From Naegleria gruberi (Eukaryota): a stretch of 64,000 bases of DNA. The notes below the pieces were generated by a model that searched no databases, was not told the DNA's origin, and saw only the letters and a program-made list of their open reading frames with translations. Location of the stretch: NCBI GenBank assembly GCA_000004985.1, contig GG738873.1; one strand, 5' to 3'. Below are positions 3,801-61,799 of the stretch, piece by piece (positions within the stretch are counted from its first letter, which is position 1; every line of letters begins with the position of its first letter). The translations under genes and the position numbers were made by a program.

Positions 3801-3871
3801 TTTTACTGCAGAACGTTGTTGGTATTTTTTTTACTTCTTTCAGAATGAAGAACAAATGGTGTGTTTAATTT

Positions 3872-6256: not shown

Positions 6257-6775
6257 CGTTCAATTTATTGAATATCCTCAATGGCTGATGGGATGTTGTT
6301 TGGGTTTTTTTATGAAAAAGCTTTGTTAGTGGGTGGGTTACTTTGTTTCTTCACTTCAATAGACATCAGATTGAGGCGCCACTCATAACAAACTAATATA
6401 GATATGTTAGTGCTAAATACATTTTGAGATTTTGTTTCGTATTAAATATTGCCCCTCACCTCAGAACATTTCATGCATTTGTCGGTGACAGACACATTTC
6501 GGATTTATCGCTGGACGCTTAAATGCAATTCTGAATTCAACCAGGTTTTAGTTACTAGTAAACGTATTTTTCTAAACCTATTTTAGAACAACCAGGTTCA
6601 AGCTTATTTGAACAAAAAACTTATTTAATAATACTCCAATCATTTCATTAATAATATTATTCCAGGCTAAAAAGGGTTCATGGCGCTCCTTTTTGCTTAG
6701 TAAAAAGGTCGCTCCTTTTGAATTGGTGAAGAAATAATATGTGGCAACCTACTCAATGAAACACATTAAGAAAAA

Positions 6776-37100: not shown

Positions 37101-37981
37101 AAAATAAACTGATCTGTTGACAAATAAGATGTATCTGACAATTGTAACCAAAAACTCAATGTAAAGTTATTTTTCAGTTCAATAAATGGTGTTCTATCTA
37201 GAAGGATGTAGCTTTGGTCGGTTAAACCAAATTTGAAAGATCTTCCTTTTTTTACCACGTTAGACTCCAAATCAATACCATTTGATGCTAGTTGGAGTGG
37301 TTTGGTTTTTTCTCTAACGAACTGAACTCCTCCAATATTGGTAAGGTTGTCAAAATTAAAATACATTTCATAATCAGCATCTACATCATAGCTGATATCG
37401 TCTTGTAATTCTGTACATTGAGGATTGCTAAGTATTTCACTTGTTGTTGAACAAATAGGTGATTGGTAAGAGTATTGAGATGTCCCTAAAGTTGCGATTA
37501 CGCTTGAACTAGAGGAAGACAAAGGGCAATTGCCTAGTAAATCTTTTTGGCAAGTACTTGCAGTCGATTGCAGAAGAGACTCACAAAACACACCTGAAAA
37601 GCCAGGATTGCACTGACAAATTTCAGGACCAATACAAACACCATTGCCACTGCAAACACCGGGAGCACCTTCAGACATTCCACCACATACAATAGTTTCG
37701 CAATTTGTATTGGCGAAGCCTGGGGAACAACTACATAAATCTTCACCAATACAAACACCGTTACCGGAGCAGGCATTAACAAGATCCGATGAATGAACAC
37801 CAAAACAACTGAAGGAGCTAACTTGGCATGTACAATAAATCAAGAAAAGAAAGACTATAAATACAAATCTTATTGCACAAATATTTCTAGTAGATAAAAA
37901 GCGGAATAGATGTGGTGTTGTTGGGCAAAGATCATCACCCTTGGCACCACAACAAAAACCTGTATTCCTCATATCATTCAT
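19158..37981 (-). CDS. Giant extracellular adhesion-type protein. It has a signal peptide and dozens of EGF-like modules alternating with ConA/LamG-like modules of about 200 aa. About 6,270 codons are resolved in one uninterrupted exon upstream of the gap, and the gene continues through the gap to 16788.
   Basis: ORF track 17519..38071 (minus) is open for 20 kb. The probable start ATG is at 37981 (MNDMRNTGFCCGAKGDDLCP..). The signal-anchor/signal peptide is ICAIRFVFIVFLFLIYCTCQVSS. Dozens of C-x-S/N-G-x-G-x-C...C-x-C-x-x-G(F/Y)-x-G-x-x-C modules are present, for example CSGNGVCIGPEICQCNPGFSGVFCE and CSGHGQCDGLNNCTCDFGYSGSNC. Interspersed non-Cys modules of about 180-220 aa carry F..SFWL.. and ..Y(I/V)(D/N)G.. 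motifs typical of ConA-like/LamG/pentraxin folds. NxS/T sequons are very dense. No stop occurs for 18.8 kb, so no intron is needed. Confidence 0.75.
21050..21820. repeat. Recent tandem duplication (unit about 543 bp, about 226 bp near-identical) inside the giant CDS, duplicating a pair of EGF-like modules
   Basis: ORF-track plus-strand antisense ORFs 21044..21364 and 21566..21838 contain an identical 77-aa run (IITGTAIGTISNIVDNTSPVLTIISKVVCFTFTSIIANTF..NIWCNTF). On the coding strand this is the repeated segment CGRIG(E/K)CIAPDVCEYYHCFGVESNETDVCSSRGKCIGNNTCECETNYFGNNCQNWTCIVNNITDCSNRGSCDYANHC. Confidence 0.8.
27560..28040. repeat. Coding minisatellite (21-63-nt units) inside the giant CDS encoding an array of N-glycosylation sequons
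   Basis: DNA units such as gtaaagttactaattgtaatgttatcact repeat many times. The translation (minus strand) is ..NFTYTNLTISNFTNSNFTSDNITIGNYTYTNSTSSNFTNTNLTSDNITIGNFTNSNFTSDNITIGNFTYTNLTIRNLTSDNITISNFTISNFTSNNITIGNFTYNNYT.. Confidence 0.8.
28131..32100. repeat. Four tandem repeat units of about 1.26-1.31 kb inside the giant CDS, each encoding one LamG-like + 3xEGF-like module. Cores of about 210 bp are near-identical between units.
   Basis: Core sequence caaaaatcaggcttggtacaattaccatttccactgcaaacaagtggatcttctgatttaacaccaaaacaaattggtaaagaacaatttgatccataatatcc.. recurs at about 28131, 29394, 30704 and 31981. The protein-level repeat is CNGIYLTSP(K/Q)ACNSNGKCYGN..CREGYYGSNCSLPICFGVKSEDPLVC(S/N)GNGNC. 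More diverged units flank the array at about 26.3 kb and 33.1 kb. Confidence 0.8.
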
Positions 37982-38141
37982 TTTTTGTTGTGAAGGAAGC
38001 AAAGTTTGCAAACAACAGCTTGATTTACGCCGTAAATAAACTGTAGAGATACAGTAAACCTGTACAGCCACAGTAAAAGGGGTAACACCAGAGTGATTTA
38101 TTACATACAGAAAGAAAATACATCAAGCGTGTTCCGGTAGA
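37982..38141. promoter_or_regulatory. Short (160 bp) divergent intergenic region between the ATG of the giant gene (minus) and the ATG of paralog A (plus); putative bidirectional promoter with a TACAG motif cluster
   Basis: Start codons lie at 37981 (minus) and 38142 (plus). The element ctgtagagatacagtaaacctgtacagccacagtaaaagg at 38041-38080 contains three TACAG copies. Confidence 0.45.
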
Positions 38142-40976
38142 ATGGCAAGAAACAATTTTTTTATTGCAATACTGGCTGTTTTTATTTTAGGATTAATTAC
38201 AGGTAGGTAGTAAAATCAACAAGAAGATGTAACACGGACTAGTTAATCTTTGTACCAATATTGTTAATGCTCAGGATGAAAATTCAGCAACAACAGAACA
38301 AGTGCAAAACCTTAAAGCTCAAAAACTTCTTCAAAATGATTTTTTAGAAGTGTTGAGCGTATTGCAAAAGCAGCAATCTGACCTCTCAGACGCAAACACC
38401 AAGAAGAAGCTGTTGGATACAAAGGAAGCTATTGAAATTTCTGGTCCATACCTGGCTGCTCTCAACATTACCTCGGATCAATTTACAACCATGCTAGCCA
38501 ATAAGCAAACTCAATTGCAAAGTGTAATGAGCTTGGAATTGGAGTTGAAGAATTTGATATCATTGACCCAAAACTCTGCTAATATTGTTGGTGATAACAT
38601 CAAAAATTTTGTAGCTGTAAGTATTAATTGTTTGTCTTTTATATTTAACATTAGCAGTTGTTCACAAAAAAAGCCTACACTGTGGATCAGTATCAAAATA
38701 CAACAAAAGAGGTACATAGATATGATCTTAATATTACCCAAGTTGATGCAATTGTTCCAAACTATCTAACTGCTTACCCAGTGAGAAGAATTAGAAATCG
38801 TATTTCAGTCGGTTTTCAACACGTGTTAGTACTAAACCAAAATGGGAAGTTGTACTCTACAGGTATTCCTTCTTATGGAAATCTGGGAAGAACCAACACT
38901 GATTCAAGAATGTTATATAACTTGCCTGTTCAAGGATTGGATGGTCTTGATATCCTTCAATTTGATGCCAATTATTACTCAAACCTTGTTTTAACCAATG
39001 ATGGAGTTTATTCATTTGGGTTGAATGACAAATCACAGATGGGAACTGGAGATAGAAATGACAGATATGTCGCTGGAAAGGTTTACGGATTTGGTGGACA
39101 AAATATTGTTCAAATAGCCATGGGACGCCAAGCATCCTATGCCATTGATTCCAACGGCAAGTTATGGGCCTGGGGTGACAATACCATGTACGGTCAATTG
39201 GGAGACAGAACCTTTTCTGAAAAGAATCGTCCTTTCCCAGTTTACAGCTATGGCGCTATTAACAGCACGGCTGTGGTTAGGGTTTGTGGGGGTGGTTACT
39301 TTGCTCTTGCCTTACTTGCAAATGGAAATATGGTTTCGTTTGGTGATAATTCATATGGACAGCTAGGTGTTAATAACCCATTAATTTCAAAATCGGGAGA
39401 ACCATTGTTGGTGGTTAAACCTTCAGAACTAGCCTCAAAGACAATTGTTGACATTCAATGTGGTTATGATTATGCAATGGCCCTTACATCATCAGGTGAT
39501 GTATATACTTGGGGAAACAACAATTACGGCCAATTGGGTGATGGAAGTTCTGGAGGTAAATCCCCAATTCCACAAAAGATCACAATTTCTGGCTGTACAG
39601 TATCCCAAATCCACACAAAATACCAAAGCTCATTTGCTTTGTGTACAAGCAACGAACTGTATTCATGGGGAATGAACTCTGTTGGCCAACTTGGAAGAAC
39701 TAGTAACCAAATACCAACAACTACCCCAACCAGAGTTGATCCTTCGTCGTTCTTGTCCAGCACTGATGACTATTTGGGCTTCCCCAAAATTATTGAGATA
39801 TCCTCCAATTTTAACAACATGTTCCTTACCACATCTGATTTGAGTATTTATGGAACCGGATCATGTATTGATGGTTCTAAACAGCAATTTGCCTTCTTCT
39901 ACACTACAAGATCCAGTGATTATGGGGCTTGCACTAGTTCCAATATTTTCTCCTTGAATTCAATGTCAAAGATGCCAACTTTCTCTTCTATTAGTTATCC
40001 AGTATCCCTTAGAAAGGCCCAATATTTTGAGATTGGAACAAGAGCCTACCTCCTTCAAACAGATACAGTAGTTCCAACCAGACCTAATAATGGCTTTAAT
40101 ATGTATTATAAGCAATTTGCTGATCCAGAAAACTCTTGGTCTATTATCGAACGAAATGAAGCCACCAACGCAGGTTTTCCTGTATCAATTTACAACAGCC
40201 ACTTCCTTAAAGCTGATGAATATGTCTACTTCTTTGGTGGTTTCATCAATGACGAAGTTTCAAATAAGATTTACAGGGCTCCAATTTATGATGTTGAATC
40301 TGGATGGGAACTCTGTAATTTTACTCTACCATATTCTGTTGCAAGTGGTATGACAACAGTTATTAATGGATACATTTATATTTTTGGTGGTATAACCAAG
40401 ATCTATTCCTACAATGGCGGTGAACTTCCAACTCTTTCTCCAACAGTTACAAACCAAATAATTAGAGCCCCAATTAATAATTTGACAAATTGGATGGTTG
40501 TTTCAGGAAAGGTATTGCCATCCGCTATACACAGTGCTTCCATTACAATTATTGACAAGTATGTCTATTTATTTGGAGGTTCCCCATCTTATTACTCTTC
40601 CAGCCAAGAAGTTTACAGAGCTTTGATTACTGATCCTTCATCTTGGGAAATGACTTTTGGTTTACTTCCATTCTTTGTAACAAATGGTGCTTTTATCTCA
40701 ACTGGTAATGAATTGTTAATGGTTGGAGGCACAGCTTCTGGCAGTTTAGTGAATGGAGGATTTATGGCGATTTCAAAGAAGTCACAATTTGACCCAGTCG
40801 GCTCATGGATGGCTAGTGATGTATTCTTACCTTCAAATGCTGCCCAATCTCTCATTACAGTGATTAGAAACGACACAGTATTGCTCTACGGAACTGAATT
40901 GCACCGTAGTACTTCTTACACTCCCCACTCACCAAAAATTGGAAGAGTTTTGAAGCTTGCACTCGATCTGTACTAA
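38142..40976 (+). CDS. Paralog A: secreted protein with coiled-coil + RCC1-like beta-propeller + Kelch-like beta-propeller; 3 exons, 918 aa
   Basis: Exon 1 is 38142..38202 and encodes MARNNFFIAILAVFILGLITG. Intron 1 is 38203..38242 (40 nt, GTAGGT..CTAG, phase 1). Exon 2 is 38243..38616. Intron 2 is 38617..38654 (38 nt, GTAAGT..TTAG). Exon 3 is 38655..40976. The frames of ORFs 38302..38769 and 38658..40976 join exactly. The predicted signal peptide cleaves near ..IVNA|QDEN. About seven RCC1-like blades carry G.N..GQLG motifs, for example YGNLGRT, GLNDKSQMG, GDNTMYGQLGD, GDNSYGQLG, GNNNYGQLGDG and GMNSVGQLG. The Kelch-like repeats are YVYFFGG, YIYIFGG and YVYLFGG. Confidence 0.8.
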
Positions 40977-41451
40977 AAGTTGTATTTGTAAAATAAAAAA
41001 TAAATTCTGTTGGATTTTTAGTGAGATCTGTGAGTTTCTCGAGCTTCAATTAGAACTCAAACTCTTGGTCTTCTTTTTATTGTTTGAAACCATGCACCTA
41101 AATTGAAATTGTGGCTCTTCCCAAACATTTACAGACCTGACTGATAACTTGTCAGTAAGAGGGGAAGCAAGAGCAGAATCAATAGAAGCAGCATCAGATT
41201 TTCAAAGACGATGGTTCAATACTGATCCTGGGTTATGTTCTATCTGGTCACAAGACAGATAAATTTCTATTGACAAGAAACTCATATTGATCCTTACAGA
41301 GGAGATAATAAATATTGTTAGATTCTGTAAAAGTGTTTGGATTTTATTTGAACAATTTACTCTGTTAGTCTTTCATAGAAAATAGCTCAAAAGTGAAATA
41401 AGCCCTTTTCACTGCAGCTTTTCACTGTTATACATTCTTTGTTCTTGCGCA

Positions 41452-44363
41452 TTAATTTTGGGAAATTACAATAGTTGATATATGAGAGTGTAATCCTTCC
41501 ACTGTTGTGATAATGGATGAAGTTGAATTTGCAGCTGCTGTAATTACTGATACAATGTAACCAACAAGCGGTAACTTTAAATCAATAACTATCCATTTTG
41601 AAGGATCATTTTTAAAACAAGCTAATACATTAGTTGAATTTCCTTCATAATCCTTTCCTCCCCAGATGAAATAATTATCGTTATCACTTGAAATTTTAGC
41701 TTCCACTCTGCTGTATGGAAGAACTTCATATAAATTCTTCCATTTCCAGTCTGCGAGTGATGCTACATGTATATCACCCACAGATTGAACTCTGTTCACT
41801 CTTCCTCCAAAGAAGTACATAGTTTTATCAATTATCTCAATAAATACATTGTAAACCGATCTTGGTAAAACTTGGTTCACAACTTCCCACAACAGCACAT
41901 TGCTAATTTTTGCTCTCATAATCTTTGCTGTTGGTACTCCTTTTGCAATCATTCCACCAAATATATAGACATATTCCTCAATCATTTTAAGTACACCATT
42001 AGCAACTGGATATGGTAATGTTTCATTATAGATTGTAACTTGGTTAAAAGATTGCTTTGAAATAATTCTATTTGAAAAGGTGCCATTCACAATACCCCCA
42101 AAATAAAAAGTCAATCCATCAAATGCAAGTTGGTGAGTGCTAAAGAATGACTTGGCAAAAAACTTTGGGTCAATTGAAAAATTGAAAGTGGGGCTAGAAA
42201 AATAAAAGGAACTAGCTAAAATGACAGAGCTAGAGTTGGAGCTTGACAACGACTTAGTGTAAATTGGTATTTTTGTGAAACTAACTAAATCAAAACCAGT
42301 ATTAGGAATTGGATGATCCATAACTATCACTCTCTTCTCTTCATCTTCATATATTGGAAGAGTTCTTTCTTCTACTGGAAAATAATTAAAAGATCCCATC
42401 ATCATTACACCTGCCATGTAATTTTGCTCATTAATGAACCCACTTGGAAAAGGTGTCACTTTAAAATAACCACCAACCATAATGCCAATTTGCCCATTAT
42501 AGGAATAAACTACTAGAGAAGAATCAGTAGATATTTGAACATCCAATAAATCTTCATATGCTGTTTCGTGAATTTGTACAAATCTTGGTTGCCTAATATC
42601 TCCACAACAAGGAACTTCGTACGATACTGACTTGATGCAAGCTGCTGGTTTTTCACAAGTGCTAATTGTATAACCAACAAATACAGGGTGAGCAGAAACA
42701 GAACAAGTGCCTGAAGACAACAATTGGCTTATTTCTGCTGCTCTCTCTGGAAGAATTCCACTCTCATATAGCCTATTTTCACCAGTAAATACGATATCCA
42801 CATTATGGGCAGGAGCCCACTCTTCACAAGCATGTTCAATGCAAATGGCTGTCAGTACTCCAGTTGCACACTGACACTTTTTCTTAGTGTTAACTCCCCA
42901 AGAAACCACTCTATTGTCAGTGGTAATGGCGTTCACAAGACCACCTCTGTGTCCAATTTTTTCAAATTTAACATCTCCAATGAACTGCCTACTAACTGGA
43001 ACGGGGGAGGGTGATGATGTTTCATCATCAGTTCCAACACAAGGATCATACCTTCCCCAAGCATAAATATTTCCATTTGACAACAAAGCTACAGTTGTTT
43101 CAGTTCCACATTGAATATCTTTTACAAAAACTCCTTCAATCCAGTCTGGAAAGCTGCTCCTAGAGATTGGTGTTGGTGATACACTGGATGCAGATCCCTA
43201 AAAGAAAACAGTAATTAATAATATGTCAAATATTGTACTCACCCAAGTATAAATGTTACCATCATAACCAATTCCAAAGGCATCTTTATCTTGTAAGCAC
43301 ACTTTTTCCATTCTAATATTTGAATTCATTCTTGTTGGCTTTTCAACATTGATATTGTCATTGTTTCCAATTATTGGGCCACCTATTCCCCATATAAAAA
43401 CGTACCCAGAATTATCTATAGCTACTGAATTAATTGCTGCATTCATGTATGCAAAAGTGTTATCATGATAAAGTATTGTAAGTGGTAAGGAAATAAATTT
43501 GTTTGTTCCTGAAGGAGGAGGTATGCCCAATCTTCCATCTGAGTTTTCTCCCTTTCAAAAATTTAGATAGATATAAAATATTGACAACCTACCCAACCAA
43601 TGATTCGTTTGTTGGTCAACACCATTGCATGAACTTTTCCACATACTAGTTGTTTGATGAATTCTCCATCTACAAGTCCTAAATTAACAGCAGCTGGTTC
43701 TATAGTTGGTGGTGAGCCCGGTCTTCCAAGAGGAACAGTCAGACTATATTCATATCCAAATGACATAAGCTGCCCACTTGAAAGATCAATGTACATTCCA
43801 TACTGATCTCCAAGGCATATGAATGTTCTTTCAGAAATAAATTTTCCACGTACTTCTCTTGAAATGCTGACTTTGTTCTTTCGTATGGATGTAGAGTTCA
43901 TTTTCTCCCTTGCAAAATAAGGGGATTTAAAGGCTTCTTGCAATGTTGTTAGGTTTTTTACAAATCGTTGTTCTATACTGTTCCACTTTTCTTGAGCAAT
44001 TTTGTTCATGCACTTTGTTTCCTTCAGCGAATGGAAAAAGGATTGCCTCCTTTGCAAAGTTTGCTTAAATGCATACATGTTTCTATTATTTGTTTCTCCC
44101 AAACTAATTATTTTCATTTCATGATCAACTTGTTTCAATTGAGCTTCTACTTCATTAATATATTCAAACATTGTTCCATTTAATTGATTAACTTTCTCTC
44201 TGTGGGCTTTTGCATTCATTAGGGCTTCAAGATAGATCTCCGAAGACATTTTGGTGTTTGTTGTTAGTGTTGCATTCATTACATTTGTTGAGTTGAGAGC
44301 CACAACTTGCAAACAACATCCCACAGTCAGGAAAAACAAAAGAACAACACTCCAACCACCCAT
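41452..44363 (-). CDS. Paralog F: secreted coiled-coil + degenerate RCC1-like + Kelch-like protein; 3 exons, 941 aa
   Basis: Exons on the minus strand are 44363..43593, 43551..43243 and 43197..41452. The introns are 43592..43552 (41 nt, GTAGGT..GAAAG) and 43242..43198 (45 nt, GTGAGT..TTTTAG), both phase 0. Frames join exactly across ORFs 43563..44363, 43198..43530 and 41452..43086. The signal peptide MGGWSVVLLFFLTVGCCLQVVALNST lies in the first exon with no intron after it. The coiled-coil region is ..NQLNGTMFEYINEVEAQLKQV... RCC1-like motifs are degenerate: GENSDGRLG, GYVFIWGIGG, DGNIYTWG, NGNIYAWG and DNRVVSWG. The Kelch-like repeats are LTFYFGG, YVYIFGG, TMYFFGG and YFIWGG. Confidence 0.75.
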
Positions 44364-44691
44364 GTGTTTTCAATGCGTTTTTTAATTATTAATATTGGAG
44401 AGATATGCAACCTCCTGACTAAACACTTGAACATTTCACCTCTTTAAGGGCGGCTTGACTTTTACTGTAACCAAAAGTTGCTGTTGTATTACCTCTTCTG
44501 CTGTCTGCAATTGGCACTGATAATACGGTATTTTAAATGAATAATGGGTGCCCTAGAGTAAGGTAATACACAAATTTTAAAGGAGCCAAAGTTCTCCAAC
44601 ATGCAAAAAGTTCAATGGTTTGGACAGAGAGCAACTTGTCTAACAAATAAACATGTACAGAATATTTGATGGGTTTTGTCTATTAAGCTTA

Positions 44692-45086
44692 CAGCACGTT
44701 TACTTCAAATTTGACTCGTTTTATGAAAGAAAATAAATTATTTAGAAAAAATTTTGATGTTCTTCTGCTGTCAAATCCAAAATAAGCATTTCAATAGAAC
44801 AACACCTAACCACTCGTTCTTACTCATTTCTACATATTTTTGAGAATGCTGCCACCCCAAGGGGTATGTCAATGCGAGGATTCATAATTTGAAGTCAGAT
44901 TTCAAAACTACCTTAATTCCATCGAGAATTTAGCATTTTGTTGAATAAAATATTATCGTTACAGATTCTTTTCAAATGGAGTTGAGTTTACTTGCCAAAT
45001 CAAAATTGAAAGATGAAATACTGTTAATTTTAAAAAAAACAATTTTAATTTCCCCAAATCTTGTCAAACTTGAAGTAAACGTGCTG
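44692..45086. mobile_element. MITE-like non-autonomous element (395 bp) with 25-bp terminal inverted repeats and TA target-site duplication (Tc1/mariner-Stowaway-like)
   Basis: The left end is TA|CAGCACGTTTACTTCAAATTTGAC. The right end is GTCAAACTTGAAGTAAACGTGCTG|TA. The TIRs match 24 of 25 positions. The interior is AT-rich and non-coding, and the element sits in an intergenic region. Confidence 0.55.
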
Positions 45087-45610
45087 TAATAAAATTACAA
45101 TTTATTCATTATTGTAAATTATTGGAGCTAAAAATATATTCTCGCGCCAACCAAAAACCGCTGAAGGTATAACATAAGGACCGTTAAATATTCAACAAAA
45201 AAAAACAATCGCTCAACATGAGTTCCTCACCACCCTGCTAAACAACCACCTTGATACCAGGAGGAGAGTTCTCCCTTTGCTTCCTTCCACAAAGTTGTTG
45301 TTCATTCTCATCAGCCATAACTAGATTCAACCATAACATCAACAGTCTTACCTGCCATTTACTTGAAGTTGTAGCTACATTAAAGTGAAGGTTCATATCC
45401 AAGAACAAGTACTTCTTTTTAATAAACAAAATATATAATATATTATATTATATTTGTCAATCCTTCACCTCCTTTGGCTTGGGTTCTCCTGGAAAATGAA
45501 CCAGTTTCTCATCTATTTGAATGAAATTATACTTTCTAATAACAATGACTCTTATTTTCCTCTTTGCGCTTTTTGACAGATTTCTCTCACCAAAATAAAA
45601 GTTTAAAAAA

Positions 45611-47016
45611 ATGGAAAAACTGAAAAACGAAACTCTCCCACAATACCCACCAACGGACAATAATAATACAGACTACTCGATCACACAGACAACAGATGAC
45701 CACTCTAAAAACAATAGTACACCACTTTTAAAGAGTACCACAATCGTTTTAGAACAAGGAAATTATAGAATTCATGTTCTAGGGACTGCTCATGTATCGG
45801 AAGAATCAGCAAGAGAGGTGAGAGAATTAATTTTGGAAAAGAAGCCCTCGATAGTAATCTTGGAATTATGTCAAGGAAGAAGTTCAATTCTTGTAGATAC
45901 CAACATTTTGAAAAAGAAGCCTTTTGAAAAATCGGAAAATAGTTTTGATGGAGAAAACAGCTCACCCATATTGATGGAAAAGACAGAGGAAATTGATCCT
46001 CACAGTAATAACAATAATAGACAAAGTTTATTTTCATTACTGATGGATTACGTAAAGAGTAAGTTTAAATCTTTTTTTGTTTGACCTTATTTTCATCATT
46101 AGAAAAGAGGAAAATTACACTTTTTCAATTGGCACTTGTATATTTCATGCAAAAGGTTACAAATGATTTGAAAATACAAACCGGAATTGAAATGAAAGCA
46201 GCATATGATATTTCTGTAAAATTAAATTCGAGAATAATTCTAGGAGATAGACCAATAGATATTACGTTGAATAGATGCTGGCATTTGATGGGCTATTTCC
46301 AAAAATTCAAATTTATTTCACATATTTTATATGCCTGCACACAGACATTTTCCTCTAAAGACATTGAAATGTTGAAACATTCCGATATTTTGACGGATAT
46401 TATTGAAGAGTTTGGAAATCAATTCCCACAGCTTGCAAGAGTGTTGGTTGATGGTATGTAATGAATAATTCTAATTTTGTAATCATTTTCAAAAGAACGT
46501 GATGCCTATCTTACTCATTCAATTCTCAAGGCAATTGAATATCTGGAAAATGAAAGGCTCAGAAGAGATCAATTGGATAGTGCAGATGATGTTGAATCTA
46601 ATAATTCTAACATTTCTTCAAATAATTCAACAGCTTTGGAAGAATCAAAAATAACAACAACCAATACTACAGATATATCGACCATTACTAATGAGAGTAA
46701 GGAAAATCAAATTGAGGAGGAAGGAGCAAACAGTTGGAGTGAATCAGAAGATGAGGAAATAGATACAAGGAGTGGCGATAATTCAAGTGAAACAACTCAA
46801 CCAGATTTGGATCCAAATACAATTGTTGTAGTTGTTGGGGCAGGACATGTTAACGGTATTTCAAAATACTTTTCCAATCCAGAAAAGATTAACAGACGAG
46901 AAATTATGAAACGATACAAGAATGAGTCTAATACGGGAAATATTCTTTTCATTTTTGCTATCCTTTTCACTTTATTGGGAATTGTAATGTATTTGTTCAA
47001 AGATATGTTCATGTAG
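45611..47016 (+). CDS. TraB/PrgY-family (TRABD-like) protein with C-terminal TM helix; 3 exons, 439 aa
   Basis: Exon 1 is 45611..46058. Intron 1 is 46059..46102 (44 nt, GTAAGT..CATTAG, phase 1). Exon 2 is 46103..46453. Intron 2 is 46454..46495 (42 nt, GTATGT..CAAAAG, phase 1). Exon 3 is 46496..47016. Frames join ORFs 45611..46084, 46081..46461 and 46573..47016. TraB motifs are YRIHVLGTAHVSEESAREVRELILEKKPSIVILELCQGR, LGDRPIDITLNR and ERDAYLTHSI. The C-terminal TM is ILFIFAILFTLLGIVMYLF. Confidence 0.75.
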
Positions 47017-47339
47017 CAAAGTATTAATAATTTTAGGTTTAGATTAATTTCAAAATGGAAAACTAAACTCATAATACCATCCCAATTGTTGCCAACCTTA
47101 GTACTTTTGAAATTAACAAGATCCAATTTTTATTTTTCAAATTTCATGCTCCTTCAGTTTGCTGTATGTTTTTGGCACTTTGAAAAATTAACAAGAAGAC
47201 TTTTCATTACTTTCTTTCACCTTTCAACATCTCCAAATATTTTTTAAAAAAAAAATCGTCATTACCCATTCATTCTGCTGTCAATTAATCTGTTGACAAC
47301 AAAACATCATCAACGCCAATCATTAAAATAAAAAAGAAA

Positions 47340-50207
47340 ATGGCCAAAGATAAAAAGAAGAAGGAAACATCTCCATCCTCTTCCTCTACATCTAATCTTT
47401 CTGATGCTCCAACAAGAATTTCTATTTCGTCATCTGACTCTGGATTTTCAAAGAATAGTCAAGATGACCAAAGCTTTGGTGAAGGAGAAGAATATATCCC
47501 AGGTGCTTCATCATCATTGTTATCAGCTTCCTCTGCTGCTAATTCAAAGAAAAAACATAGATTTTCCATTCGTAATTTATTAGGAGGTAAGAAGGAATCC
47601 TCAAAGGAATTGAGTCCTGGCAGAAATTCCGTTACCCAATCAACAGGTTCTCTAGATGAGATGAAAAAGGCAGGATTGAGTGGTACAAATATTGGTGTTT
47701 CACTTGATGTTCCAACTTTGGACACTTCTTCCTCAAGTGATCAAGCTCTCTTGGATTTACAAAAGAGAATCAAGGAATCTGATGTTAATGGAACAAGTTC
47801 AATGTCTCCTTCCTCTCCAAGTGGTTCTACTTCTGCCAGGTCAAATAATTCCCCTCGTGTCTCTTCACCAATTGCTTCATCAACTGGTTCTCCACGCACT
47901 AATCTTGCTTCCAATGAAAAGATTATTCAAATTGATGAATTTGAAAGATTAAAGAATTGTGAACAAGAATTGGCAACCAAATTGAATGAAATTAAAAATT
48001 TTGAAGAAGAGTTGGCTCAAACTAATGCCAAACACAAGCAAGAATCGGAAGAAAAAGAAGGTCAATTACAACAACTTAAAAAGAGTATTGAGGTATTGAC
48101 CAATCAATGCGAACAATTGAAGCAATCCATTTCCAATTCTGCTCCTGTTGAAACTCAACAACAACCAACGAGTGGTGTGGTTGATATATCACTTGTTGAC
48201 CAATTAAAGAAGGAAAATGAAGAAAAATTGCAACAAGTCAAGAATGAACATGCTACTCTCTTAGAACAAACAAAGAAGGATCTTGCAACCGAGTTGGATC
48301 AAGTGAAGAAACAAGTTGAAACTCTTCAAACCAGTATTACTCAATTAACCAAAGAAAAGCAGGAACAAGAAACCAAGATTAAAGAATTGACTTTAGAAAA
48401 TGAAGGTTTAATGGATGACTTGGTGAATTTGGATTCTAGGGCTTCCGACGTTAAAAAAACATTGGAAAAGAAGAATAAGGATCTTGCTACTGAAGTTGAT
48501 GAACTAAAGAAGAAACTCCAAGAACAAACATCCACCGAAAAAAAGGAAACTCAAAAGGCCATCCTTGAACAAAGTGAAAAAGTTGTCTCAAACACAACTG
48601 GAGATCATGCTGAAAAGGTTAAGGCAGAATTTGAAAAATTGAAACGTTGGAATCAAGAACTCAATGATATCATGTCCACTATTGAGAAAGAACGTGATCA
48701 ATTGGCCTTGCAAGTGGAAGAGCTCAAGAAGAAGCTTGAAGAGTCCTCCGAAACAACCAAAAAGGCAGTGCCAACATCAGGTGAAGATGCTGATGCCGAA
48801 GAACCAGCAGATATAGAAACTCTCTTGAAGAATTTGGAAGAAATCACATTGGAAAGAGATGTCCTTGAAGAATTACGTCAAGAAGAACTTTTGGAATATG
48901 AAAAGGAAAAGGAAGAATTAGCTGGTGAAATACTGGCTCTTAAGGAAGAATTGGAAAAGATTAATGGAAGTCAACCATCCTCTACACCTGTTGCCACAAC
49001 TCAACCTCTTGTAGATACAACAGAGTTGGACAATTTGAAGAAACTTGTTCAATCTCTCCAGTCAGAGAATCAAGAATTAAACAAGGTGTCAAGCAAGTCA
49101 GAACCAGAAAAGATTGTAGAACAAGTTGAAAGGGTAGTTGAGAAGGAAGTCGAGAAAATTGTTGAAAAAGTTGTCGAAAAGATTGTTGAAAAGGAAGTTG
49201 AAAAGATTGTAGAGGTTGAGAAGATTATTGAAAAGCTTATTCCTGTTGGAGATGGTGAAGCCAGTGTTGAAATTAACAATTTGAGAGAACAAGTTGATAA
49301 TTTGGTAACTCAACTCGATCAAACTCAAGAACAAGTGAGAGATTACGAAAAACAATTTGAGAGTGATCGTTTGATTTTGGAACAACTCAAGAAGGAATTA
49401 TCTGCTGAAACTCAAAAGGCCAAGAATGCTGAAAGTGAGCTCAAGAAGGCCAAGAACGAACTTGAAAAGCAAGTTTCTTCTGTTTCTACTGCCTCTGCCA
49501 TTGTTACTAAGCAAGAAACCTCCAGTGCACCAACAGAAAATACCATCCAAGAACAACCATCCATCCCAGAGTCATCAGAATCAGCTGTCACCAGTGAAGA
49601 ATCAGCCTCTGTCAGACCAGCATCTTTTGAGGCTCCTGTCATTTCCTCCTTAGAAAAGGAAGACTTGTACAAGATTCGTTCCAAGTATAGTTATTATGAC
49701 TCTGATGAAGAACACAACTCTGTTCCTCAACAACCAGTTGCTGCCGTACCAATTAAAAAAGAAGAACCAGAAGAAGAGGAAGAACCAGCTAGAGACGATG
49801 AAGACGAAATTTATCAAGATGAACTCAAAAAATTCGAAAAGGATTTGGATAAGATGTTGAGTAAAACATCTATCAATCTCTCCAAAGGAAAGATTACCTC
49901 ACTCAAAGAACTCGAATTGTTATGCATCAAGTTGAAATTCAACAAGAGTGTTAAAATTTTGGACTTGTCAAGCAATACTTCCATTGATAATAGAGGTTTA
50001 AAGATTATTTGTGATATGCTTCGATGGAATACTGCTGTAACTGATCTTTATCTCGAAGACACTAGTATTACAACCCTCAATCCTCATCTTTTTGATGTTT
50101 TCAATGAAAATTTCAAACTTACCAATGTTGCCTTCTCAGAAGATTACATCCCAAGTGCAGAATTAGACAAATTGGATACTCTATTAGACAGAAATGAAAC
50201 CTACTAG
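47340..50207 (+). CDS. Long coiled-coil protein (955 aa) with Ser-rich N-terminus and a C-terminal RNI-like leucine-rich-repeat cap
   Basis: Uninterrupted ORF from ATG 47340. There are extensive heptad-like E/K/Q/L-rich repeats including (E/K)KIVEKVVEK.. iterations. The C-terminal part is ..ELELLCIKLKFNKSVKILDLSSNTSIDNRGLKIICDMLRWNTAVTDLYLEDTSITTLNP... Confidence 0.65.
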   Translation: MAKDKKKKETSPSSSSTSNLSDAPTRISISSSDSGFSKNSQDDQSFGEGEEYIPGASSSLLSASSAANSKKKHRFSIRNLLGGKKESSKELSPGRNSVTQSTGSLDEMKKAGLSGTNIGVSLDVPTLDTSSSSDQALLDLQKRIKESDVNGTSSMSPSSPSGSTSARSNNSPRVSSPIASSTGSPRTNLASNEKIIQIDEFERLKNCEQELATKLNEIKNFEEELAQTNAKHKQESEEKEGQLQQLKKSIEVLTNQCEQLKQSISNSAPVETQQQPTSGVVDISLVDQLKKENEEKLQQVKNEHATLLEQTKKDLATELDQVKKQVETLQTSITQLTKEKQEQETKIKELTLENEGLMDDLVNLDSRASDVKKTLEKKNKDLATEVDELKKKLQEQTSTEKKETQKAILEQSEKVVSNTTGDHAEKVKAEFEKLKRWNQELNDIMSTIEKERDQLALQVEELKKKLEESSETTKKAVPTSGEDADAEEPADIETLLKNLEEITLERDVLEELRQEELLEYEKEKEELAGEILALKEELEKINGSQPSSTPVATTQPLVDTTELDNLKKLVQSLQSENQELNKVSSKSEPEKIVEQVERVVEKEVEKIVEKVVEKIVEKEVEKIVEVEKIIEKLIPVGDGEASVEINNLREQVDNLVTQLDQTQEQVRDYEKQFESDRLILEQLKKELSAETQKAKNAESELKKAKNELEKQVSSVSTASAIVTKQETSSAPTENTIQEQPSIPESSESAVTSEESASVRPASFEAPVISSLEKEDLYKIRSKYSYYDSDEEHNSVPQQPVAAVPIKKEEPEEEEEPARDDEDEIYQDELKKFEKDLDKMLSKTSINLSKGKITSLKELELLCIKLKFNKSVKILDLSSNTSIDNRGLKIICDMLRWNTAVTDLYLEDTSITTLNPHLFDVFNENFKLTNVAFSEDYIPSAELDKLDTLLDRNETY

Positions 50208-52652: not shown

Positions 52653-55600
52653 CTAAAAAACCATGTCACAATATACTTTAATTGGTATTGTTGTTCCATT
52701 ATTTAGAATACTATAGAAACCACCACCAATCAAACCTTGATAAACACGAGAGGTGTTAGTTGGATTTTTGTAGGAAGAGCAAGAATCAGCAACAGTTCCA
52801 TCAGCATAGTGTCTCCCATTACTGTAATCCACTATTCCTATTAATTGACATCTGTCACCAAATCTACCATGACTACATTGACATTCATCATTACCAACGC
52901 AAATACCAGCTGAAGAGCAGACACTTGGATTAGTAGCCTCGTAATATTGTGGACCAGTATACCCTGTAACATTACTGAAACCAAAATCTGGGTTAGAACA
53001 TTGATAGCACAACAATGGATACTTAGTGCACCAATCAAAATGGGTCAACTCTATATTTGTATCAGGAATAGCAGTCCATGATCCTATAATATCACTCTTC
53101 TTACCAAAGGCAAAGTAAGGTCCAGTTGAACTAGTGGATGAGTTTGTACCACCAAAAATATATAACTTATCTTCTGTTGAGGAAAATGGACCGGTATTAG
53201 TAATGAAATAAGGAAGGAGACCGAAGGTCATCTCCCAAACAGTTGGAGATTGTAATTTTGCTCTAAAGATATTAATACCACTTCCTCGTACTGTTGAGCT
53301 GCCACCAAACAAGTAGACATAATTATCAACCACTTCGATAAAAGCAGAATGCAGAGGAAGGGGAATAACATCTTGTACAATCTCCCATTTTGTTATGCTT
53401 GTTGTTGAAGCTCGCATTATACAATTGGTTACATTGTGTTTCATTGTTGGAGCAATATCTGCAGTTGCATTGAACTCATAGATGGAAATGATACCACCAA
53501 AAATGTAAACATAATCTCCTACTGCCATAAGCATACCAGATGCTATTGGGATTGGAAGTTTTTCGTTAATTAATTCCCATGATTGAAACAAATCATAGAC
53601 AGGTGCTCTGTAAATTCTATTTGAAATATCATCATCCACAACACCTCCAAACAAATAGACATATTCACCATGTTTAAGGACGTGTGTATTATAAATAGAG
53701 TGAGGAAAACCAGTGTTGGTAGTTTCATTATACTCAATCATATTCCATACCATGTCATTTGCTGTAACGTTTGTGGTGTACATATTGAACCCGTTATTTC
53801 TTCTTGTTGGAAGAGTGTTCTCTGTTTGAAGTAAATATGCAATATCACCCATTTCGAAATAAACTGGTTTTCTCTGATACCAGTATAATTGCATGTTGGT
53901 TTGGTGTCGTACTTGAGTGAAAAGTCCGTTAATAGAGAAAGCAAACTTCTTTGTTTGAACGGTTTCAAAGCAATCTTGTCCAAGGAAAAACTGGGTATTA
54001 AAACAGCCACCTGTGGCATGAATGGATCCATCAGCAAGAAAAAGGAAGGAATTATAAACATTGGAAGTAATATCTACAATTGGGTGAGCTGAGTATTTTA
54101 CAAGTTTGGGCGATAGAATTTTTAATCCATAAGAAAGTCCAGCACCTGTTTGCCCAATATCATTCAATCCCCAAGAATAAAAATACCCTGGTTTAGATGC
54201 ACAAACAGCAAAACTCACATGACCTTTTGTGTGGATCTTGGTTACGGTGCAGTTAATACCAGAAATCAAAGTTGGTATTGGTATGTTTGTTGTGTTACCA
54301 GTTCCAACTTGTCCATACATATTACCACCAAAAGCAAAAACTTTACCACTGGCTGTAAGGACAAGGTTATGAAACATACCACATTGAATATCTTTGATTG
54401 TCTCATTTTGGAATGGTTTCATCTTTACAACAACAGGCTCACCACTTGAAACGTAATCACCAGTACCCAATTGACCGTATGTGTTGTCTCCAATTGCTAC
54501 CAGATTACCTGTTGATGTTAAAGCAAGTACACTACCATTTCCAGCACAAACTCTAACAACTGTTTGATTTGCTAAAGCTCCGTATCTATAAACAGAGAAT
54601 GGTCTATTCTTTTCATCCCAAGTTCTGTCACCAATTTGACCTTGATCATTAGCTCCCCATGCCCACAATTTTCCATTTTCATCTATCGCATACGAAGCAT
54701 AATTACCCATAGCAATTTGAACTATTTTAGTGTCAAAGTTAAAACCATGAACTTTTGTTGCTTTCAACACAGATTTAGTTCCACCAGTTGCTAATTGTGA
54801 ACGATCATTTAAACCAAAAACATAGAGACCATTCGTAGTCAACACCATGCTGCTATTTCTCTGAGCTTCAATTTGAAGAATTTCTAATTCGTCAAGAACT
54901 TCAACAGGGTTATTGTAGAGGAGTCTAGAATCCTGACTTGTTCTTCCCAAATTTCCATTATTGTAGACACCAGTCGAGTATAATTTACCATTAGGCATTA
55001 GTACAAGTACGTGATTTGCACCTGCAACAATTCTGTTTCTCACTCTGACAATAGAAGAATGATATTCATAGGAAGGAAAAATACCTGGTCTAGAGTTGAA
55101 ATACATTTGGTGGTTCATTGAAAAGTTCAAAGTGTTTTGTCTGAATAATAATTCCTCTCCATAGATAGCTTCGGTGAAGTTCTTTACAAAACTAAATTGT
55201 CGATGCTCAAAATAAACTTACATTAATCATATTAAAACTATTCTCTCCCAATATTCTTTGTGAGTTATCAGCCAAGGTAATGACATTTAGTAATTCCACC
55301 TCCATGCTCAATGCTCTTTTCCAGTCCTTTTTCTTTGATGTGACCATTTGATCAAACATTGTTTGATTAACTCCCAAGTCATCCAATATCATTGAAGCTC
55401 CATCAAGTGCTTCTTGCATATTCACTAGCTTTTGCATTATCTTTGAGGAGTAAAAATCTTCCTTTTGCTTTTCGAGTCCAACCAGAACTCTATTGTAACT
55501 ATTTTGTTTTTCTTTCCATCCTTTTACAAGTTCAACAGCATGTTGTTGTTGATCATTTGAGGCATCAAATGTATGTACACTCAATGTGAAGCAAATTATT

Positions 55601-55701
55601 ACTATGAAAAATTTATAGTAAGCGGAAATATACAACCTACAAAAAGCTACACACACACATTGCAATTTAGACCGCAAACCAGCGTTGAGGGTCTTCATCA
55701 T
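52653..55701 (-). CDS. Paralog B: secreted coiled-coil + RCC1-like + Kelch-like protein with an extra C-terminal EGF-like module and a truncated fibrinogen-like start; 3 exons, 989 aa
   Basis: Exons on the minus strand are 55701..55641 (MMKTLNAGLRSKLQCVCVAF), 55601..55222 and 55181..52653. Intron 1 is 55640..55602 (39 nt, GTAGGT..CATAG, phase 1). Intron 2 is 55221..55182 (40 nt, GTAAGT..TGTAAAG, phase 0); an alternative acceptor 27 nt downstream is also in frame. RCC1-like motifs are YNNGNLGRT, GLNDRSQLATG, GANDQGQIGD, GDNTYGQLGTG, GGNMYGQVGTG and GLNDIGQTG. Kelch-like repeats are YVYLFGG, YVYIFGG, YVYLFGG and LYIFGG. The C-terminal segment reads CSSAGICVGNDECQCSHGRFGDRCQ, then ..RVYQGLIGGGFYSILNNGTTIPIKVYCDMVF and stop. 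Confidence 0.75.
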
Positions 55702-56077
55702 TCGTTTTTTTTCTGAGTTGTGCACCGCAAATCACTGTAATTTCTGTGTTAAGGCTGTATTCACAGTAAGACTTTCAAAAACCTTAACTAGAAGTTATTT
55801 GGAGAATATTAGAAGAAGATTGTGCATAATGTATCTCCCAAATGTGCTCAACATTTTTTTTGGTTTCAAGCCAATCATAAGGGACGATTGAGCAGCAATA
55901 AACTTTTCATTTCTGCACGAAAATGAGATGATAATTGCCTACAGATTTATTAATCAAGATCTGTTTCTAAGTTGAATAGTCCACAATAAAATTCAAAACA
56001 TTTCAAAGAATAAAGTCCCTATCATTTTCATTATTCTCATTCAATACTCTATATTATCATTAAACTACTAGTACAAT

Positions 56078-58846
56078 TTATTTATTTTCAAATGGTTGAG
56101 TTAATAATGGTATGGTACACAATGTGTGAGTCTTGTTGCTCATTAACCTGGTGAAGATTCTCTTGATATCAGTGCCGTAGAGATAAAGATTATTACCAGA
56201 GAAGGTTGGAGTGAAAGAAGAAACAGAAGGGATAACATCTCCCGAAACAGTCCATGAACCAACTGGGTCACTTGTTGGAGTGTAAACAACTCTGTAATTG
56301 AAATCATTCAGAGATCTTGAATGTCCTTTGCTTGGATAACCACCAAATATGAAAATGTAATCTCCTGTTACCACCATTGGCCCATCAGAGTAGGTAAATG
56401 GCAATACAGAGAAGGTATTTTCCCACAGATAGGGGAAAATATATCTAGCTCTCAAAATATCAGAGTAGGCTTCTTGAGATGGTGATCTACCCCCAAAAAT
56501 ATAGATATAATCACCGATCATGGCTATGTTACCACCATACACAGGTTGTGGGAGTTTTTTAGAGACTATTTCAAAGTTGTAAGGTGCATTGATAGGGGCA
56601 CGAATTATCATGTCAGTAACATTATTAATTGAAATGTCAAAGTTCAAGATGCCACCATAAATGTAGATGTAATCGTCTACAACCAATGACATACCAGAAG
56701 CAACTGCATATGGTAAGGTATTTTTCATCAACTCCCACCCATTCTCTATATCACTGACAGGAGCACGATAAATCTTATTGCTGAGGGTTCCATTCACCAC
56801 ACCACCATAAAAATAAATATATTCTTGAGCTCTGGCTATATGCGTGTTATAAATGGTACCAGGGAAGGTTCTTTTTGTCTTGTTTTGGTAATTCACAAGA
56901 TCCCAAGTCATAGGGTCACTCAAGTTTCTATAATACAACTGGAAGCCATTATCCACAAGTGGATAATACTTATCACCAACAAACTGATAGGCCTTATCAT
57001 CAGTTTCAAAATATGGGTAATGTCTTCTTTCAAGAGTAAAGCCAGTGGTGTTGTCAAAGGTAAAAACTTTTCTAAAATTGGATGTTACAGGTTCAAAAAC
57101 GTCAAACAATTGTCTTTCGGTTTGGGAGGAATATCCAGCACCTACAAACGCTCCATCGGTTGTCAAGCCAACAGCCGACCTGTACATCATTGTTATTTCA
57201 GTAATTTTGTGGTTGTATAATTCATCATTGGAGAGAGGAATAACTTCTGTTGCCACATTCATAAGAGCAGAAAGACCACCTGTGTGACCTAATTGCCCAT
57301 TAGAATTATCACCCCAAGAGAACCACTTTCCATCGTTACAAAGTACAAAGGAATTTCTAAACTTGGAATAGAGGGCAACAATAGATCTGCCAGCACCAAT
57401 ACCAGCCATTTCAATTGGTGTAGGGACAGTGAGGTATGGTGAATTGATACCTGTTCCACACTGACCTTTGTCATTTTTTCCCCAAGCAAAAACTTTTCCT
57501 GATTCTGTCAATACAGTTGTAAAATCATCACCACACTTCAAATCAACAACTATCTCTCCTGCAAAGCTTTCTGGTAAATTTACAGCAACAGCTTCCATTT
57601 TATATTCAGCGGAGGAGGCGCTTCCAATACCTAGTTGACCGTATGTGTTGTCGCCAAATGAATACAGACTATTATTTGAGGTTAAGACAGCAGTGTGTGA
57701 CAAACCACCACAAACCTTAACAATGTACTGATTGGCTAGAGCACCATCCATGTATACATCAACCGGTCTCACCTTTGTCACAGTTGTTTTATCACCAAGT
57801 TGGCCTCTATGATTTCTTCCCCAGGCATATAACTTGCCGTTTTCCTTAATGGCATAGAAAGTAAAAGCACCAGCAGCAATTTGCTCAACATCTTGAGGAC
57901 CTTGCAAGTCCCAAGAGAATAATTTGAATGGTACTTTTTTGTGAACGGCAACGGTTCCATCACCAACTTCGCCATAGTCATTTCTTCCCCAAGTGTAAAC
58001 AGCATCACCAGCCAAGAGAATGTTACTATAGTACGAAGAATCGAATTGAAGAATTGTAAGATTGACATTTGTAGAATAGTTTGGCAACTCAACTGGTGTA
58101 CTAAGTGTTGGAACATATCCTGTGCCCATAGTAGTTCCTAATCTACCCAAACATCCATCACATTCAACACCCCAGGAATAAAGTTTTCCATTGCCATGAA
58201 GATAAAGTCCATGGTCTCTTCCAGCTGATAGCCTATTTCTTTCACGCACAACCTTCTTAAAGGTTGCATAGTTTGGCAGATACCCATATGTAAGATTAAA
58301 ATGCAACGGAACAGGAATTGTACTAATGTTAGTATTGGTCCACTTAGAAGGATCATTCAAATAGTTCAAGGAATCTATTACCAGATCTTTCAAGGAACTA
58401 TATGTTGTATTAAAACCTTGATTGGTGAGAGCAATGAGACTGTCAAGTTCTTTTTCAACAGAAACAACATTCTCATATTGGGTAACCTTATTTTTAAGAA
58501 TTGCTTCGTATTGGTCTTGAGGGATACCAAAATCAGATATAAATTCTTTCGAGTACTTTACAGCTTCACTAATAACAGTGATTTTTTCTTTAATATTTGC
58601 TTTGACCATGTCTGCTTTTTGTTGTAAATAATCTTGATTAACAGCATAATAACTATCTCTTCTTTCTCTAAGACTAGCAATATTATAGTAAGCTTCATCT
58701 AACGGGAGTTGCTCTGATAATACTTGATTGATTACTGTTATATTAAGCATTGTAAATAATCATTTAATATTAATAAATAGAAACATCAACCTACCCGAAG
58801 CAACAAGCAATAGTAACACAACCACAATTGTGGCATTCAGCTTCAT
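56078..58846 (-). CDS. Paralog C: secreted coiled-coil + RCC1-like + Kelch-like protein; 2 exons, 902 aa
   Basis: Exon 1 is 58846..58795 and encodes MKLNATIVVVLLLLVASG. The intron is 58794..58735 (60 nt, GTAGGT..AACAG, phase 1). Exon 2 is 58734..56078 and is in frame with ORF 56078..58750. RCC1-like motifs are GVECDGCLGRLG, GRNDYGEVGDG, GRNHRGQLGD, GDNTYGQLGIG, GKNDKGQCGTG and GDNSNGQLG. Kelch-like repeats are YIYFYGG, YIYIYGG, YIYIFGG and YIFIFGG. Confidence 0.8.
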
Positions 58847-59018: not shown

Positions 59019-61799
59019 ATGAAAATCAAGCCATCCCCAAACACGCACATCAACAAACGGGTGGTTTTTTGCGTCCTCCTCGCTTTGCTAGGACTTGGTA
59101 AGTAGTGTGGAGGAATAATATGTTGACACGTTTAAAGTATTTGTAGTGGTCAAGGCTCAATCAGAACAATCTTTCAGTGAATATGTACTTTCCTTAATGT
59201 TCATGATTCAAAAAAGACAAAGTTTGATGGGAATTGAAACAGATTATTTAAGTGAAGCTGACAAAATTATCTACAAGGAGAAAATAATTTATAATACAAA
59301 ATATGCAATGGAAAGGTCTCTAGCCTCTATTAACAAGCTTGGTGTTAAAGAACAAACATATACCATACTTCTCTCAGCCAAACAAAACGAAGCAGCAGCC
59401 GCTTGGGACTCTCTTGTTGAAGTTAACAGTTATATCAATGTTACTAAGCATGCTGTTTCAGTTGCCTACTCAACCATTGATTCAATCAATGAGGTATGTT
59501 TTTTTACAATTTTTGTTGCTGAACCAGTTAGAAATTATCGAATGTACTTCTAAGCTACCACCATTGGCAAAAAACTGACCTCGATTTATTGCCAGCAAAC
59601 ATGACTCTCAATACTACAGTTGGTTATCTCCCAAATCATGTAATGTATTTCCCAGTTATGAGAATTAGAAATAGAATTTCTGCTGGATTAAATCATGGTT
59701 TGTTCCTTGGCCCTGGTGGTAATTTGTATTCTTGGGGTGTTGATATGGGTGGTTCTTTGGGAAGATCTGTTAACACACCAATGCCAAGTTTGGATTTGCC
59801 TGTAGAATTGAAGAACGTTACCATTCTTCAGTTCACTAACTCTTACTATGGAAATCTGTTGCTAGCTGATGATGCCGTCTATTCATGGGGAAAGAATGAC
59901 TATGGAGTTGATGCTGATGGTACAACTGTGAATCATTACCAACCAAGGAAGGTCTTTTCATGGGATTTACAAGGTCCTAAAGGAATCGCTCAGATTGCTT
60001 CTGGCCCATATAACTTTTATGCTATTGACGAAAATGGTAAACTCTATTCATGGGGAAAGAATGATTTTGGCCAACTTGGCGATAGAACTCCAATTGACAA
60101 ATGGAGACCTGTGGACGTTTTTATGAAGGGTGCTTTGCTTAATCAAACAGTTACCAGAGTTTGTGGTGGTTTGACTCATACTCTTGTCCTTGCCAACAAT
60201 GGAATGCTTTACTCTTTTGGTGATAACTCTAAAGGACAACTTGGTATCGGAGTTAGTTCCTCAGTTATTGCAAAGAAATGGGAACCTGTCCTCATCAATT
60301 TCCCATTCAATGACACAATTGCAGATATTCAATGTGGTGATAACCACAACCTGGTGCTCTTGACTGGAGGTGCCATGTATGCTTGGGGTCTTAACGACTA
60401 TGGGCAACTTGGAGATAATACCACAACAACAAGAACAAAACCAACCAAAGTCAACACACTCTCAGCTATTGGTACAAGAAAAGTTGTCAAGATTGAATCA
60501 AGACTCAACGAGAATTTTGCCTTCTTGGAAAATGGAGCCATGGTTTCATGGGGTCAAAATGATTATTCTCAATTAGGTCATTCCAAAATAGCAATTATAG
60601 GCAATATTGCCACCACCTTTATAAATGTTCCGGTAGAGTTTAGCTTACCCAATGGTTATATGCCTTCTGAAATAGCAATCATGAATGGATCAACTGTAAT
60701 TCTTGGTGCAAATGGCACCCTTTATGGTGCTGGATTTTCTTCAGAAAGTACCAGAAAACTGTTGAACATCACCACTTCCCAAACTAAGTTTACCCAGTGT
60801 TACACCTTCCCACCTATATACCCAGTTATGGAAAGAAGACATTATCCATATATCCAACTCAACGAAAAGAGCTATGCATTTATTGGATCCAAGTACTTTT
60901 CTTACCCTGATAATGGGTTTGATGGATACGTGAGGAATAACACCTCTCCAGAATTGTGGTCAATGATTGATTATCAAAATACAACATCACAGATGTTCCC
61001 TGGTTCCATTTACAATACTCATATTTTGAGAACTAACCAACATGTTTACTTCTATGGTGGTTTTGTTAATGGATCAATTTCAAACCTTATTTACAGAGCT
61101 CCAGTGGATAATATTGAAAATGGATGGGAAATTGTTAAGCCAACGCTCCCATTCCCAGTTTCAAACGGTATGTCCATTTTATTGGATGACTTTTTCTACA
61201 TATTTGGTGGCTTGACTTGGTTTAATAGCACAGACAAAGGATTCGTATCAATTGGTGTTTCATCAAGTATTTTGAGATGTCATGTTTCCAGTCCAACCCA
61301 ATGGGAAATAATGAGTGGTGGTGGGTTGCCAAGAGGTGTCTATAGTGGCAATATTGCAAGAATTGGAGATTTCGTCTATATTTTGGGTGGGCGAGTTAAC
61401 ACGGGTGATGCGTTTGCTGACATCTTCAGAGCTCCTTATTTGAATATTAGTCAATGGGAAAATACTTACTCAGTGCTTCCATTCCCTTTATCTGATAGCC
61501 CAATGATAATTACCAATAGTAGTATCTACCTCATGGGAGGATATTTGTCTGAGTACTCTCCAAATATTATTGGTACATACTATCCTCATATTATTACAGC
61601 TCCTCTAAGTGATCCAGTTGGTTCATGGTCTGTTACTGGAGACAAGCTCCCAACTAATCCAGCTTTTCAATCTGTTACTTCGCCAGTAGTTGTTGGATCG
61701 AATGTATATTTATACGGTAATGATGCCTCAAAGATAACAGAGACAAACATCAGAAGTACCACTGTCAGCTCATTCATTAAGATTCCTCTATTGGTTTAA
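59019..61799 (+). CDS. Paralog D: secreted coiled-coil + RCC1-like + Kelch-like protein; 3 exons, 897 aa
   Basis: Exon 1 is about 59019..59097 and encodes MKIKPSPNTHINKRVVFCVLLALLGL. Intron 1 is 59098..59146 (49 nt, GTAAGT..TTTGTAG, phase 1). Exon 2 is 59147..59493. Intron 2 is 59494..59531 (38 nt, GTATGT..CAGTTAG, phase 0). Exon 3 is 59532..61799. Frames join ORFs 59146..59553 and 59589..61799. RCC1-like motifs are GVDMGGSLGRS, GKNDYGVDADG, GKNDFGQLGD, GDNSKGQLGIG, GLNDYGQLGD and GQNDYSQLG. Kelch-like repeats are HVYFYGG, FFYIFGG, FVYILGG and IYLMGG. Confidence 0.75.

Follow-up and report, generated by a model that had tools for sequence, protein, structure and literature searches.

The element described here lies in a 64-kb window of the Naegleria gruberi genome (the whole stretch of DNA that was analysed), within a 1,247-bp gap between two divergent open reading frames (ORFs): the first long ORF of an RCC1/Kelch paralogue ('paralog F') and the beginning of a TraB-family gene (Table 1). 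It is situated 329 bp upstream of the paralog F ATG and 525 bp upstream of the TraB-family ATG, confirming the intergenic position given in the initial annotation of this DNA. At the TraB locus of Naegleria lovaniensis (contig L015), gene gaps measure approximately 100-400 bp, and since such gaps are typical of Naegleria, a 395-bp insert within a gap of 1,247 bp is plausible. The neighbours of the N. lovaniensis TraB gene are other genes and the two loci are not syntenic, leaving no orthologous site for comparison. A suggested resemblance between the start of the element and a promoter TACAG motif was rejected, as TACAG is not enriched upstream of ATGs: just 4 of the 15 upstream regions of 250 nt contain it, close to the background frequency (1.18 per kb per strand).

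At least six paralogues combining RCC1 and Kelch beta-propellers are clustered in the window, sharing 31-58% identity with Naegleria homologues. For the ORF at 38658-40976, homologues from Naegleria fowleri and N. lovaniensis were found at 44-57% identity, and its 90% cluster includes NAEGRDRAFT_49691 (XP_002676169.1), a 99.9% match to the window. A GC content near 35% and a run of Ns in the window also suit the N. gruberi draft assembly (PMC6125883). The N. fowleri counterparts FDP41_001825 and FDP41_001826 adjoin on one contig. Elsewhere in the window, two adjacent plus-strand ORFs (11262-12092 and 12376-13053) correspond to the N-terminal and C-terminal portions of the Pfam domain Ntox11 (PF15521, 'novel toxin 11'), with E values of 2.5e-37 and 7.5e-78, respectively, and seem to be parts of a single gene that an intron or a frameshift divides. 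On the minus strand, a giant open frame of more than 6,800 codons (17519-38071) encodes repeated EGF-like modules, has long internal repeats and is broken by a gap of Ns at 17536-19157.

Table 1. Coordinates in the window of the 395-bp element, its parts and the neighbouring genes.
Feature	Position	Strand	Basis
Left flanking TA, putative target-site duplication	44690-44691	.	direct reading
Left terminal inverted repeat, CAGCACGTTTACTTCAAATTTGAC	44692-44715	+	direct reading, arm comparison, simulations
Interior, 347 nt, GC 28.8%	44716-45062	.	ORF, Pfam, Rfam and repeat scans
Right terminal inverted repeat, reverse complement CAGCACGTTTACTTCAAGTTTGAC, 1 mismatch versus left arm	45063-45086	-	
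Right flanking TA, putative target-site duplication	45087-45088	.	direct reading
First long ORF of RCC1/Kelch paralogue ('paralog F'), 266 aa, ATG 44363	43563-44363	-	
TraB-family gene, at least 3 ORF pieces, ATG 45611	45611-47016	+	
RCC1/Kelch cluster	38658-40976, 41452-44363, 52653-55130, 56078-58750, 59589-61799, 62600-64000		

Direct reading of the sequence gave an element of 395 bp at 44692-45086, exactly as first annotated, in which two terminal inverted repeats (TIRs) of 24 nt each enclose an interior of 347 nt. The arms are identical at 23 of 24 positions, the sole mismatch being an A/G difference at arm position 18; the near-perfect TIRs proposed earlier were thus retained, whereas their count (24 of 25 positions over 25 bp) was not. 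The locus reads gcT TA-CAGCACGTTTACTTCAAATTTGAC...GTCAAACTTGAAGTAAACGTGCTG-TA Ata, and more widely ...ctattaagcT on the left and Ataaaatt... on the right. The ends read CAGCACGTTT, and the termini are CAG...CTG with TA directly outside both. One base past the TA, the T at 44689 also pairs with the A at 45089, and with the flanking TTA/TAA included, the inverted repeat extends to 27 nt with 26 matching positions; further into the element, similarity between the arms fades (34 nt at 88%). The element is AT-rich only mildly, with a GC content of 30.1% (28.8% in the interior) against 35.1% and 32.4% in the flanking intergenic sequence and approximately 35% in the window.

The inverted repeat is real and beyond chance expectation. 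Sites matching the 24-mer with at most three mismatches occur only twice in the window, with 0 expected from 100 dinucleotide-preserving shuffles. When the window was simulated 200 times with a first-order Markov model, no inverted repeat of 24 nt within 3 kb surpassed 21/24, compared with the 23/24 observed; among pairs anchored by TA-CAG...CTG-TA, the observed pair scored 19/20, whereas 100 simulations gave 15/20 at most. This arm pair is by far the strongest inverted repeat of the window, and inverted-repeat, blastn and anchored scans all agreed with the original view that it is the only transposon-like feature there. The draft state of the assembly, with its 1.6-kb run of Ns at 17536-19157, might invite an explanation by a chance inverted repeat or by an assembly or cloning artefact. 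Chance was ruled out by the shuffles and simulations, and the nearby assembly is supported at 99.7-99.85% identity by two contigs of the ENA metagenome ERZ929261, which carries a near-identical strain: contig L001 is 99.85% identical to window positions 37102-41647 and contig L027 is 99.73% identical to positions 45448-49147, the two lying on either side of the element. An explanation of this type is therefore highly improbable.

The element was found to be non-coding, as had been proposed: its longest ORF is 37 aa, and neither Pfam nor protein searches returned a match. Concatenated six-frame open stretches gave no match at E<=10 among 5.8 billion proteins, Pfam scans of the element peptides yielded no meaningful match and no transposase remnant, and exact protein look-ups of ten small ORFs from the element and its surroundings were negative. 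No tRNA genes were detected in the 64-kb window by a tRNA scan. Folded as single-stranded DNA, the element gave a predicted energy of -45.8 kcal/mol compared with -32.7 +/- 3.7 kcal/mol for shuffles (z = -3.6). This added stability would also be expected of an RNA gene whose product is structured or forms a hairpin, with a long stem closing its 5' and 3' ends. The gain is attributable to the terminal stem alone, with the centroid structure retaining essentially nothing else, and Rfam covariance models had no match in 44300-45700 at E<=1 or in the whole window at the gathering score, so that an RNA gene is a very unlikely explanation. The predicted fold pattern is the one expected for TIRs, unlike that of a structured RNA. 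Subterminal copies of the TIR, to which a transposase might bind, were also sought in the interior, where the best match of 14/24 was equalled in 518 of 1000 shuffles and is not significant. Short, near-identical ends around an unrelated AT-rich interior thus correspond to the geometry of a TIR transposon rather than to a structured RNA or a long palindrome.

The presence of TA on both sides agrees with the initial annotation. Its interpretation as a target-site duplication is ambiguous: the reverse complement of TA is again TA, which makes a duplication inseparable from an extension of the inverted repeat. TA already accounts for 7.3% of the dinucleotides in the window, so its occurrence beside CAG...CTG adds modest weight. 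It is conceivable that the element is a TIR relic of another kind, whose true ends are the 27-nt repeat TTACAG...CTGTAA or lie at some other boundary, with TA not being a duplication; it could then belong to a superfamily other than Tc1/mariner, such as another family generating 2-bp duplications, or represent an old insertion with a decayed duplication. Such a reading draws on the continuation of the repeat through TTA/TAA (26/27), on the inseparability just described, and on the absence from the window of a partner transposase that would fix the superfamily. No direct repeat of 3, 4, 8 or 9 bp was found outside either candidate boundary, however, the near-identical arms speak against great age, and CAG/CTG ends with TA outside constitute the classical Tc1/pogo arrangement. 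On balance, we consider a relic of another kind unlikely.

TA duplication and 5'-CAG termini are characteristic of Tc1 and pogo/Tigger elements and of the MITEs derived from them. With the Tc1/mariner/pogo-derived MITEs, such as human MADE1 and the Tigger-derived MER elements, the N. gruberi element has in common a length below 600 bp, a lack of coding content, almost perfectly matching TIRs of 20-30 nt, a flanking TA at either end, 5'-CAG...CTG-3' termini and an intergenic position; it differs from them in lacking sequence similarity to any element searched and in being seen as one locus. The Pandoravirus/Acanthamoeba 'submariner' MITEs (PMC4495683) are likewise among the close known systems. 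The element also resembles plant Stowaway elements in its TA flanks, small size, AT-rich composition and presumed reliance on a Tc1/mariner-type transposase. The Stowaway family is defined by the terminal consensus 5'-CTCCCTCCGT, and many of its members fold as a long hairpin over their full length; to our knowledge, these elements are plant-specific. Unlike them, the N. gruberi element starts with CAGCACGTTT and pairs at its ends only. Because the Stowaway consensus end is absent, the term 'Stowaway-type' used in the initial annotation holds just loosely, for a Tc1/mariner-like, TA-flanked element, and fails in its strict sense (CAGCACGTTT versus CTCCCTCCGT).

Small, TIR-bounded, non-coding MITEs are also known from the hAT, PIF/Harbinger (Tourist) and piggyBac groups, and hAT ends often begin with CAG. 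Each of these origins was considered and rejected. For hAT, which generates an 8-bp duplication, the flanks TAAGCTTA and TAATAAAA match at 4 of 8 positions; for PIF/Harbinger (Tourist), with a 3-bp TWA duplication, the flanking TTA and TAA do not form a direct repeat; and for piggyBac, with a TTAA duplication, no TTAA is present at the flanks.

Further copies were sought by blastn (word size 7), with the element plus its flanks and the whole intergenic region as queries, and by a scan anchored on TA-CAG...CTG-TA. In 62.4 kb of window sequence, only the two arms themselves were recovered. No second copy or related TIR was present in approximately 11.6 kb of new ERZ929261 DNA (contig L018 and the portion of contig L016 beyond its match to the window), and a further 44 kb of Naegleria-like sequence, including N. 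lovaniensis contigs, also contained none. The additional Naegleria DNA sampled comprised the paralogue-bearing contigs L016, L017, L018 and L024-L026 and the N. lovaniensis TraB locus. Roughly, the copy density is at most about 1 per 70 kb in the DNA sampled, and the 41-Mb genome could hold one copy or hundreds. Apart from the search for copies, window positions 52662-56117 were found to be 95.1% identical to L016, below the 99.7-99.85% observed elsewhere, and L016 positions 3522-8231 match nothing in the window, with collinearity being lost; the contig could come from another haplotype or strain, or from a segmental duplicate.

Exact scans of other collections also yielded no copy. A TIR 19-mer gave three seed-length matches in JGI metagenome contigs, without a partner arm. 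In GTDB genomes, a TIR 24-mer gave 0 matches and a 19-mer gave 3, again without a partner arm, and in IMG/VR, 10 matches to a 17-mer, 2 to a 20-mer and 0 to an interior 21-mer were obtained, none with a partner arm. The JGI, GTDB and IMG/VR matches were rejected as copies, being of seed length only and located in unrelated prokaryotic or phage DNA. In two IMG/VR contigs, 23 nt of the left TIR recur exactly (AGCACGTTTACTTCAAATTTGAC; L022, 1773-1795 and L023, 6089-6111), inside a 220-aa phage ORF and with neither an inverted partner nor any extension; we judged this to be a chance match, although the expected number is only approximately 0.005.

Occurrence as a single copy in all DNA examined, together with the location in a divergent promoter region, would also suit a non-mobile inverted repeat, either a local duplication in inverted orientation or a palindrome upstream of both genes that forms a cruciform or binds protein. 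In that case, the exact TA/CAG termini would be a coincidence (at a TA frequency of 7.3%), and a repeat confined to the terminal 24-27 bases around a 347-nt interior without symmetry has the geometry of a transposon. A non-mobile origin therefore appears improbable.

A partner transposase and an allele of the locus were looked for as well. None of the 20 window ORFs scanned against Pfam carried a transposase domain; the remaining long ORFs of the window encode the RCC1/Kelch paralogues, the EGF-repeat giant and a coiled-coil/LRR protein. Neither exact look-ups of the flanking ORFs nor a homology search with the concatenated flanking ORFs returned a second allele, protein-level negatives of this kind being weak in that the near-identical L027 genes were themselves not returned by the homology search, likely because it is blind to clusters represented by N. 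gruberi proteins. L027, the nearest contig of the near-identical strain, misses the element by 361 bp, starting to its right at window position 45448. Its end coincides exactly with a perfect palindrome made up of A and T only, ATATAATATATTATAT (45433-45448), which probably marks an assembly break at low-complexity sequence. The first TraB ORF (45611-46084) has 157 codons and the corresponding gene of the 99.73% identical strain (L027, 164-478) has 104; the single gap of the alignment may sit here, as a frameshift or an intron-boundary difference. The searchable literature yielded no account of a MITE or Tc1/mariner family in Naegleria. Repeats have been reported to make up 5.1% of the N. gruberi genome, and DNA transposons 1.25% of that of N. 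lovaniensis (PMC6125883).

Collectively, our analysis points to 44692-45086 as one insertion of a non-autonomous, TA-targeting TIR DNA transposon of the IS630/Tc1/mariner/pogo type, a reading to which we assign a probability of roughly 0.6. The structure itself is real, and at the same level of confidence it is most likely a low-copy or relic element. TIRs, TA flanks, CAG...CTG termini, small size, lack of coding or known RNA content and an intergenic location all favour the MITE assignment made initially, which is nevertheless only partly supported; a MITE family is marked by several copies, an autonomous element with the same ends and presence/absence polymorphism. The analysis demonstrates the inverted repeat and its significance, the flanking TA, the lack of coding or known RNA content and the host species, and it leads us to infer mobility, a superfamily, a partner transposase, and either membership of a MITE family or the status of a solitary deletion derivative or relic.

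Under the preferred reading of a TA-targeting non-autonomous transposon, the 24-nt ends would be bound, and the CAG/CTG termini cut, by a transposase whose gene lies, or once lay, elsewhere in the genome. The element would then integrate at the TA of ...TATTAAGCT-TA-ATAAAATTAC..., between the divergent RCC1/Kelch paralogue and the TraB-family gene, and gap repair would duplicate the TA. Having no coding capacity of its own, the element would have been moved in trans. The single mismatch in 24 positions between the arms suggests that the insertion is not very old.

Eukaryotes commonly carry small DNA transposons of this form, and the element matters little in itself; at best, it is a new example of a known transposon type and would not surprise a transposon specialist. 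Naegleria genomes are reported to contain a few percent of repeats, including DNA transposons (PMC6125883), and the element, if confirmed, would add one more small non-autonomous DNA transposon to a sparse Naegleria repeat catalogue. If confirmed, its insertion in the upstream region shared by the RCC1/Kelch paralogue and the TraB-family gene could also influence the expression of both. The close agreement of the two TIRs hints that a transposase was active fairly recently in N. gruberi, which would be of interest for the building of genetic tools for Naegleria. A more far-reaching and quite doubtful reading is that the element represents a recently active, new family of TA-targeting MITEs in N. 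gruberi, served by a functional Tc1/mariner/pogo-like transposase elsewhere in the genome. If this were true, Heterolobosea would gain their first characterised system of mobile DNA transposons, and N. gruberi, for which very few genetic tools exist, a possible basis for an endogenous transposon tool.
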